Source of the DNA: Escherichia virus TH57 | Sequence record: MT446422.1 | Length of the DNA: 64,000 bases | Direction: 5' to 3' (one strand) | Part shown: positions 29,015 to 29,500 of the stretch, piece after piece | How the letters are laid out: every line of letters starts with the position of its first letter | Position numbering within the stretch: the stretch's first letter is position 1 | The notes under the pieces: model-generated | Databases searched by the model: none | Told to the model about the DNA's origin: nothing | Seen by the model: only the letters and a program-made list of their open reading frames with translations | Made by a program: the position numbers and the translations under genes

Positions 29015-29225
29015 ATTGACTATTGAAGGTTCTGAAGAAGCTCTGAAGATGTTTGTTGACTGGTTCCACGGTCAAGGCGAACAGGACTTTATGGAATGTT
29101 GGGACGGTGGCCAATGGAACGGTAAAGAAATTGTTTATCCGAGCACATATATCTCTGTTCGCGGCGGATATGATGGCCTTCGTTTGGTAGAATATGATAT
29201 TGCATCTGATGAGGAAGTGAAATGA
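29007..29225 (+). CDS. hypothetical protein
   Basis: ORF track 28992; ATG at 29007. Confidence 0.45.
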   Translation: MSKLTIEGSEEALKMFVDWFHGQGEQDFMECWDGGQWNGKEIVYPSTYISVRGGYDGLRLVEYDIASDEEVK

Positions 29226-29500
29226 TTGAAGACATCAAAGGTTATAAGCCACATACCGACGATAAAATCGGTAAAGTGAATGCTATCAAAGATGCAGAAG
29301 TTCGATTGGGGTTAATGTTTAAAGCTCTGGAAGATGAACATGTTACCTATTATATGAACTTGGATACCGAAGAAGTTTCTGAACAAGAACTGGACCAGGC
29401 CCATGAACGCATCACCCAGATTCGTAACGCGATTGACCGTCTGAAAGAAGCAAGCATGTGGGCGTGTCGTTCCGTTTTCCAACCCGAGGAAAAATACTAA
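29222..29500 (+). CDS. small helical protein at the T4 vs.4 (Acb2) position; candidate cyclic-oligonucleotide sponge
   Basis: 92 aa; second gene upstream of regB as vs.4 is in T4; assignment by position and size only. Confidence 0.35.

Follow-up and report, generated by a model that had tools for sequence, protein, structure and literature searches.

In phage T4, the product of vs.4 (Acb2) is a sponge that counters CBASS: it forms a hexamer, to which three molecules of cGAMP bind (PMC10449767). The crystal structure of T4 Vs.4 (PDB entry 7UQ2) is the work of Jenson et al. 2023, of which PMC10449767 gives a summary. Ligand binding by T4 Acb2 is abolished by the Y8A substitution; F82 stacks on the ligand, and binding is poor in the F82C escaper (PMC12657218). 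In Acb2 of Pseudomonas phage PaMx33, the founding Acb2, two protomers contribute Y11, which stacks on the dinucleotide, and K26, which forms a salt bridge with it (PMC10312549); L14 and P90 make further, hydrophobic contacts (PMC12393519).

PaMx33 Acb2 has, in addition, a pocket for cyclic trinucleotides made of R67, A70, I71 and T74, where a helix kink at E64 (E64-P65-G66) enlarges the three-fold pocket. cA3 is not bound by T4 Acb2, and the D61R substitution does not change this; T4 Acb2 has no helix kink at the position of PaMx33 E64, and its residues Y37, A57, L60, D61 and T64 are thought to occlude the trinucleotide pocket. Some Acb2 homologues bind 3'cADPR in place of CBASS signals (PMC12393519). 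Therefore membership of the family alone leaves the ligand unfixed. Our literature search found no paper naming both Acb2 and Gaprivervirus, the genus to which the phage described here is assigned by its sequence.

The vs.4 gene and its locus

The window, i.e. the whole stretch of 64,000 nucleotides that was analysed, is assigned by its sequence to a T4-like phage that belongs to Gaprivervirus. By megablast, positions 28000..31300 matched TH41 at 95%, VR20 and SP18 at about 93-94% and VR7 at about 92%. The gene under study and the features discussed with it are the following.

13239..13694, plus strand: acb1 (57B), 151 aa, matching Acb1 in PDB 7T26 with an E-value of 4.9e-62.
29211..29217, plus strand: Shine-Dalgarno sequence GAGGAAG, 4 nt 5' of the vs.4 ATG and within the end of vs.5, read from the sequence.
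29222..29500, plus strand: vs.4 (acb2) coding sequence, 92 codons followed by TAA, identified from the ORF list, the match to 7UQ2, the PF24729 domain and an identical protein of phage UPEC01.
29222..29225, plus strand: ATGA, overlap of the vs.4 start with the vs.5 stop, from the sequence and the ORF list.
29222..29320, plus strand: codons 1-33, conserved N-terminal segment with Y8 (29243..29245) and K23 (29288..29290).
29321..29440, plus strand: codons 34-73, hypervariable centre of the hairpin, from the end of helix 1 through the loop to the start of helix 2.
29441..29497, plus strand: codons 74-92, conserved C-terminal segment with F86 (29477..29479) and P88.
29486..29490, plus strand: Shine-Dalgarno sequence GAGGA of vs.3, within the vs.4 codons for P-E-E, read from the sequence.
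29498..29502, plus strand: TAATG, overlap of the vs.4 stop with the start of vs.3 (tadIV-1), from the sequence and the ORF list.
29862..30320: regB, matching Pfam PF10715 with 242 bits.

The original prediction had placed the ORF at the vs.4 position by counting back from regB. The PF10715 match confirmed regB, and the gene order proved to be that of annotated relatives. In VR7, SP18, fPSFA and Tequatrovirus RB32, the annotated order is denV, internal-protein genes, vs.8, vs.7, (vs.6), vs.5, vs.4, vs.3, regB, vs.1, vs and tk.4. The window shares with these four phages the order vs.4, vs.3, regB, vs.1, vs, and its succession vs.8-vs.7-vs.5-vs.4-vs.3-regB is that of T4. Thus the ORF lies in the vs.4 slot. 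In Dhakavirus ABTNLS3 and CLB_P2 and in Jiaodavirus Merci, a regB-sized gene directly follows vs.4, with no vs.3/tadIV-1 in between.

Some GenBank records describe the homologues of this protein as RegB-like RNA endonucleases, namely those of Klebsiella phages Merci and phiA85 and of Yersinia phage vB_YenM_P8. For the window protein such an identity has almost no likelihood and was rejected, as the protein has no PF10715 match and gives no BLASTP alignment to the RegB of the window at E <= 100. In Merci, the regB-sized neighbour gp5 (459 nt) is called hypothetical, which suggests that the RegB-like label was displaced by one gene.

The vs.4 ORF lies between a vs.5 ORF of 72 codons and a vs.3 ORF of 101 codons. 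The ATGA overlap between vs.5 and vs.4 is annotated alike in VR7, SP18 and fPSFA, and we infer from it that the two genes are translationally coupled. The small size of the ORF is the sole point in favour of a chance or decayed reading frame, a reading that homology and the substitution pattern exclude for practical purposes. Indeed, homologues were found by tblastn in 1,231 phage records, identical and near-identical proteins are encoded on many contigs, and substitutions in the conserved ends of vs.4 are mostly synonymous. In addition, a Shine-Dalgarno sequence precedes the gene, and its start and stop codons are coupled to those of its neighbours. The ORF at 29222..29500 was thus confirmed as a real coding gene. 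Two antisense ORFs run across it on the minus strand (29312..29506 and 29350..29457) and are regarded as chance, because the plus-strand homology is strong.

Promoters and RNA elements were also searched for around the locus. In T4, a vs.8 promoter drives the genes from vs.8 to vs.3 (PMC13243611). In the window, a scan of 26400..32200 for sigma-70 promoters and terminators stayed at chance level (16 found, 17.2 expected). A custom scan of 26000..30400 detected neither a TATAAATA late promoter nor a MotA-box match, and returned only two early-like promoters, located upstream of denV and of ip7. Rfam gave no match at E <= 1 over 27000..31000. Between ip7 and vs.8, the spacer of 161 nt (28030..28190) seems unusually rich in GC; Rfam gave no match within it, and its predicted folding is not better than that of shuffled sequence (z = -0.26). 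The vs.8 promoter described for T4 may lie in this spacer, where no convincing sigma-70, MotA-box or late-promoter match was found.

Small paralogous ORFs are arranged in two plus-strand runs, three upstream of vs.8 (27082..28029) and five downstream of acb1 (13759..15302). Most of them start with MKTYQEFI(T/N)E; in the second run, three ORFs at the beginning have the looser starts MNIKTYNEFL, MKTFNEFF and MQTFHEFL. This common start resembles the leader that targets T4-type internal head proteins to the capsid, and VR7 annotates the corresponding ORFs as ip10, ORF127c and ip7. The vs.8 orthologue (28191..28718, plus strand, 175 aa) contains a Walker-A-like GGRQTGKTS motif and gave a sub-threshold match to nSTAND NTPase 5 (17 bits for a cut-off of 34). 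The tk.4 orthologue (31232..31705, plus strand, 157 aa), which lies in one early-gene block with the sponge genes, has a Macro domain (PF01661, 35 bits for a cut-off of 22), suggesting that it binds or removes ADP-ribose. Elsewhere in the window, tRNA-Met (CAT) and tRNA-Arg (TCT) are adjacent at 16486..16641 on the plus strand; the counterpart region of VR7 is annotated with tRNA-Met only.

Family membership, predicted fold and dinucleotide pocket

The ORF had been proposed as a possible Acb2-like sponge on the grounds of its position, size and helical character. Sequence comparison bore this out. A phmmer search against all PDB chains gave a single significant match, "Vs.4" of T4 (7UQ2), with an E-value of 4.6e-29 and an alignment running from end to end; by BLASTP, the identity to T4 Vs.4 is 65%. 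The protein matched Pfam PF24729 (Acb2_Tad1_hairpin, "Acb2/Tad1 hairpin domain") with 57.9 bits, for a gathering cut-off of 27. A profile built from 29 homologues also matched PaMx33 Acb2 p26 (8H2J, 8IXZ and related entries) with an E-value of 3.5e-5. A search of NCBIfam returned no model for Vs.4, Vs.3, Vs.5 or Acb1. An identical protein is already public (P0001, Escherichia phage UPEC01), and UniRef names its relatives of 98-99% identity "Acb2/Tad1 hairpin domain-containing protein".

The Pfam definition is shared with Tad1 (Thoeris anti-defence 1), which has an additional domain and binds gcADPR. No Tad1 chain was returned by the phmmer or profile searches of the PDB, nor was any found among the best 50 fold matches.

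The fold was predicted with AlphaFold2 as a monomer, using 55 homologues (mean pLDDT 87.8). The 92-residue chain was modelled as two long helices, residues 13-45 and 54-85, in agreement with the size and helical character expected for Acb2; the predicted protomer is thus a long antiparallel two-helix hairpin of the type found in the family, of about 90 residues. Confidence was low at residues 1-10 and 86-92, the ends that form the pocket. This was attributed to the absence of partner chains in the model and is compatible with ordering of the termini upon assembly. Foldseek against the PDB ranked three chains of 7UQ2 best (E 2e-7 to 1e-6, TM 0.73-0.74), and PaMx33 Acb2 (8H2X/8H2J) was among the next few matches (TM 0.64-0.71).

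In the alignments, the residues that hold the ligand in the described proteins correspond to Y8, K23, F86 (F82 in T4) and P88 (P90 in PaMx33) of the window protein. Among 55 homologues, Y8, K23 and F86 show no variation, and conservation of P88 is 90% or more. Conservation of these pocket residues, together with homology, leads us to infer a hexameric cyclic-dinucleotide sponge like T4 Acb2. The ORF encodes the Acb2 (Vs.4) orthologue, which very probably acts as an anti-CBASS sponge of this kind. The analysis showed that the gene is coding, homologous to T4 vs.4 and syntenic with it, and that its product keeps the pocket residues and is predicted to adopt the Acb2 fold; by analogy with T4 Vs.4 the protein would share its hexameric state, ligand spectrum and anti-CBASS phenotype.

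The following mechanism can be proposed. The vs.4 gene would be translated from a polycistronic message running from vs.8 to vs.3, in coupling with its neighbours through the overlapping stop and start codons. The chain would fold into the long two-helix hairpin, and six chains would assemble, by homology with 7UQ2, into a hexamer with three pockets. Each pocket would be built from the N-terminal segments of two chains, with Y8 stacking on the bases and K23 contacting the phosphates, and from the C-terminal tail with F86 and P88. The hexamer would sequester, without cleaving them, the products of host CD-NTases (3',3'-cGAMP and related dinucleotides), which would keep CBASS effectors under their activation threshold.

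A sponge directed at Thoeris, like Acb2_43, which would bind 3'cADPR and not CBASS signals, has to be weighed against this proposal, since ten tested Acb2 homologues inhibit type I Thoeris in a study covering 84 sponges (PMC12393519). [quoted passage not shown] The window protein keeps exactly the pocket residues of T4, and its ends are 91% and 95% identical to those of T4 Vs.4. In its model, strand is limited to isolated bridge residues at positions 8 and 91, in termini of low confidence and with Acb2_43 compared by description. Because Acb2_43 relies on additional strands and other contacts and the termini here are T4-like, a Thoeris-type Acb2 is very unlikely, and the dinucleotide sponge is retained as the preferred assignment.

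The hypervariable hairpin centre and the three-fold pocket

Sequence conservation is distributed very unevenly along the protein. Over 122 homologues, the mean identity is 88% for residues 1-33 and 93% for residues 74-92, but only 44% for residues 34-73. The latter segment varies in length; single linkage at 50% separates it into 21 or more allele classes. Within the genus, VR7 and VR25 have the same gene with the same flanks and an identical first 33 residues, but their allele encodes 87 aa and its central tile is entirely different (18% amino-acid identity). At the nucleotide level, identity to VR7/VR25 is 37-57% in codons 34-73, approximately, and 90-100% further out on both sides. This difference shows that an allele has been replaced within the gene.

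The allele class of the window is common to phages of other genera. Vs.4 of the window is about 82-84% identical to those of Karamvirus and Jiaodavirus, and 75-94% identical to those of two Dhakavirus phages. In the comparison with Dhakavirus CLB_P2, synonymous divergence reaches 0.92 in the centre and 0.31-0.35 in the ends. This imbalance points to separate histories of the centre and the ends, i.e. to recombination and not simply to faster evolution of the centre. These comparisons show vs.4 to be an intragenic mosaic, the centre of which is a hypervariable tile with recombination even inside the genus.

Both parts of the gene are under constraint. Within its own allele class, vs.4 shows dN/dS values of 0.02-0.10, indicating strongly purifying selection, and the values of 0.07-0.10 obtained for the centre indicate purifying selection there too. 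In the first 33 codons, comparison with VR7 revealed 8 synonymous and no non-synonymous codon changes; the ends of vs.4 are therefore held by selection on the protein and not by conservation of the DNA.

The mosaic pattern is also visible beyond vs.4. Compared with VR7, TH41, SP18 and VR25, the vs.5-vs.4-vs.3 block (29000..29800) is a patchwork with flanks 95-100% identical. For vs.5, all close relatives that were compared give a nucleotide identity of just 70-88%. The vs.4 centre is 82-95% identical to TH41/SP18 as against the 37-57% to VR7/VR25, and vs.3 is 93-98% identical to TH41/SP18 as against 73-83% to VR7/VR25.

The variable centre covers the positions of the PaMx33 cA3 pocket as well as the blocking residues of T4. 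The equivalents of T4 Y37, A57, L60, D61 and T64 are E37, A60, I64, T65 and R68, and those of PaMx33 R67, A70, I71 and T74 are T65, R68, N69 and D72. The swapped centre might give the three-fold-axis pocket another shape and enable this allele, unlike T4 Acb2, to bind a cyclic trinucleotide or another signal as well. We consider this unlikely. In its favour, R63, I64, Q66, I67 and R68 are nearly invariant within the allele class while the loop varies, R68 aligns with A70, a cA3-contacting residue of PaMx33, and Acb2 homologues are known to differ in their binding spectra (PMC10312549 among the sources). However, hexamer packing explains the conservation within the class equally well. R67 and T74 of PaMx33 are replaced by T65 and D72; the Pro-Gly kink is missing, the 12-residue stretch in question containing neither Pro nor Gly, and the helix 54-85 is predicted to be continuous, as in T4, where cA3 is not bound even after an arginine was added (D61R). 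The features of the trinucleotide-binding subgroup (PaMx33/JBD67 type) are thus lacking.

A more elaborate form of the same idea is that residues 34-73 constitute an exchangeable specificity cassette. The centre would be swapped between T4-like genera, and the face made of E37, R63, I64, T65 and R68 would form a pocket for a second signal that T4 Acb2 cannot bind; the near-invariant ends would keep the dinucleotide pocket and give recombination a foothold. This, too, is improbable on the same evidence. Because the equivalents of R67 and T74 are T65 and D72 and helix 2 has no Pro-Gly kink, the window Acb2 is expected, from its sequence and model, to bind dinucleotides only and no cyclic trinucleotides, as T4 Acb2 does.

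Comparison with known anti-signalling genes

As in T4, acb2 is accompanied by acb1 in the window, the ORF of which shows 2H-phosphoesterase-like HST and HIT motifs; the phage thus has both known T4 anti-CBASS genes. Directly downstream of vs.4, the vs.3 product (29500..29805, plus strand, 101 aa) is identical at 96 of its 101 residues to PDB 9WIW. The structure is that of TadIV-1 from phage UPEC07. TadIV-1, which belongs to the family founded by T4 Vs.3, is a dimer that acts as a sponge for N7-cADPR and inhibits type IV Thoeris (PMC13243611). The key TadIV-1 residues R18, R19 and K34 are present in the window protein. Given the TAATG overlap, the two unrelated sponge genes vs.4 and vs.3 appear to be translationally coupled. 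This head-to-tail pair of sponge genes with overlapping stop and start codons is an arrangement already implicit in T4.

The phage has the anti-signalling set that is standard for the T4 type, composed of the Acb1 nuclease, the Acb2 sponge and the TadIV-1 sponge. In T4, binding of 2',3'-c-di-AMP by Acb2 triggers the Panoptes guard system OptSE (PMC12657218). As the Acb2 pocket is intact here, the phage should be sensitive to Panoptes. Taken with published work, the gene set thus predicts resistance to cGAMP-type CBASS and to type IV Thoeris, along with this sensitivity; such predictions help to assess host range, for instance for phage therapy.

Altogether, the vs.4 gene described here is ordinary for a T4-type phage, and the finding is already known, since the family, the locus and the identical protein sequence are all public. 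Just one aspect goes beyond routine annotation, namely the existence of many recombining alleles of the Acb2 hairpin centre, for very few of which ligand spectra have been measured.

With T4 Vs.4, the protein shares an orthologous genome position, a first segment of 33 residues that is 91% identical and a last segment of 19 residues that is 95% identical, a helical-hairpin fold according to the model, and the residues Y8, K23 and F82 (here F86). The two proteins differ in their centre: residues 34-73 of the window protein are about 20% identical to the T4 centre and include four more residues, and the cysteine-rich T4 loop NCEDCEF is replaced by a different sequence of 11 residues. The lining of the three-fold pocket differs accordingly, with E37/I64/T65/R68/D72 at the positions of Y37/L60/D61/T64/T68 in T4. 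PaMx33 Acb2 is a member of the same family at about 17-19% identity, and equivalents of its Y11, K26 and P90 are present in the window protein. However, PaMx33 Acb2 binds cA3 and cAAG via R67 and T74 beside the Pro-Gly kink, whereas the window protein has T65 and D72 at these positions and no kink.
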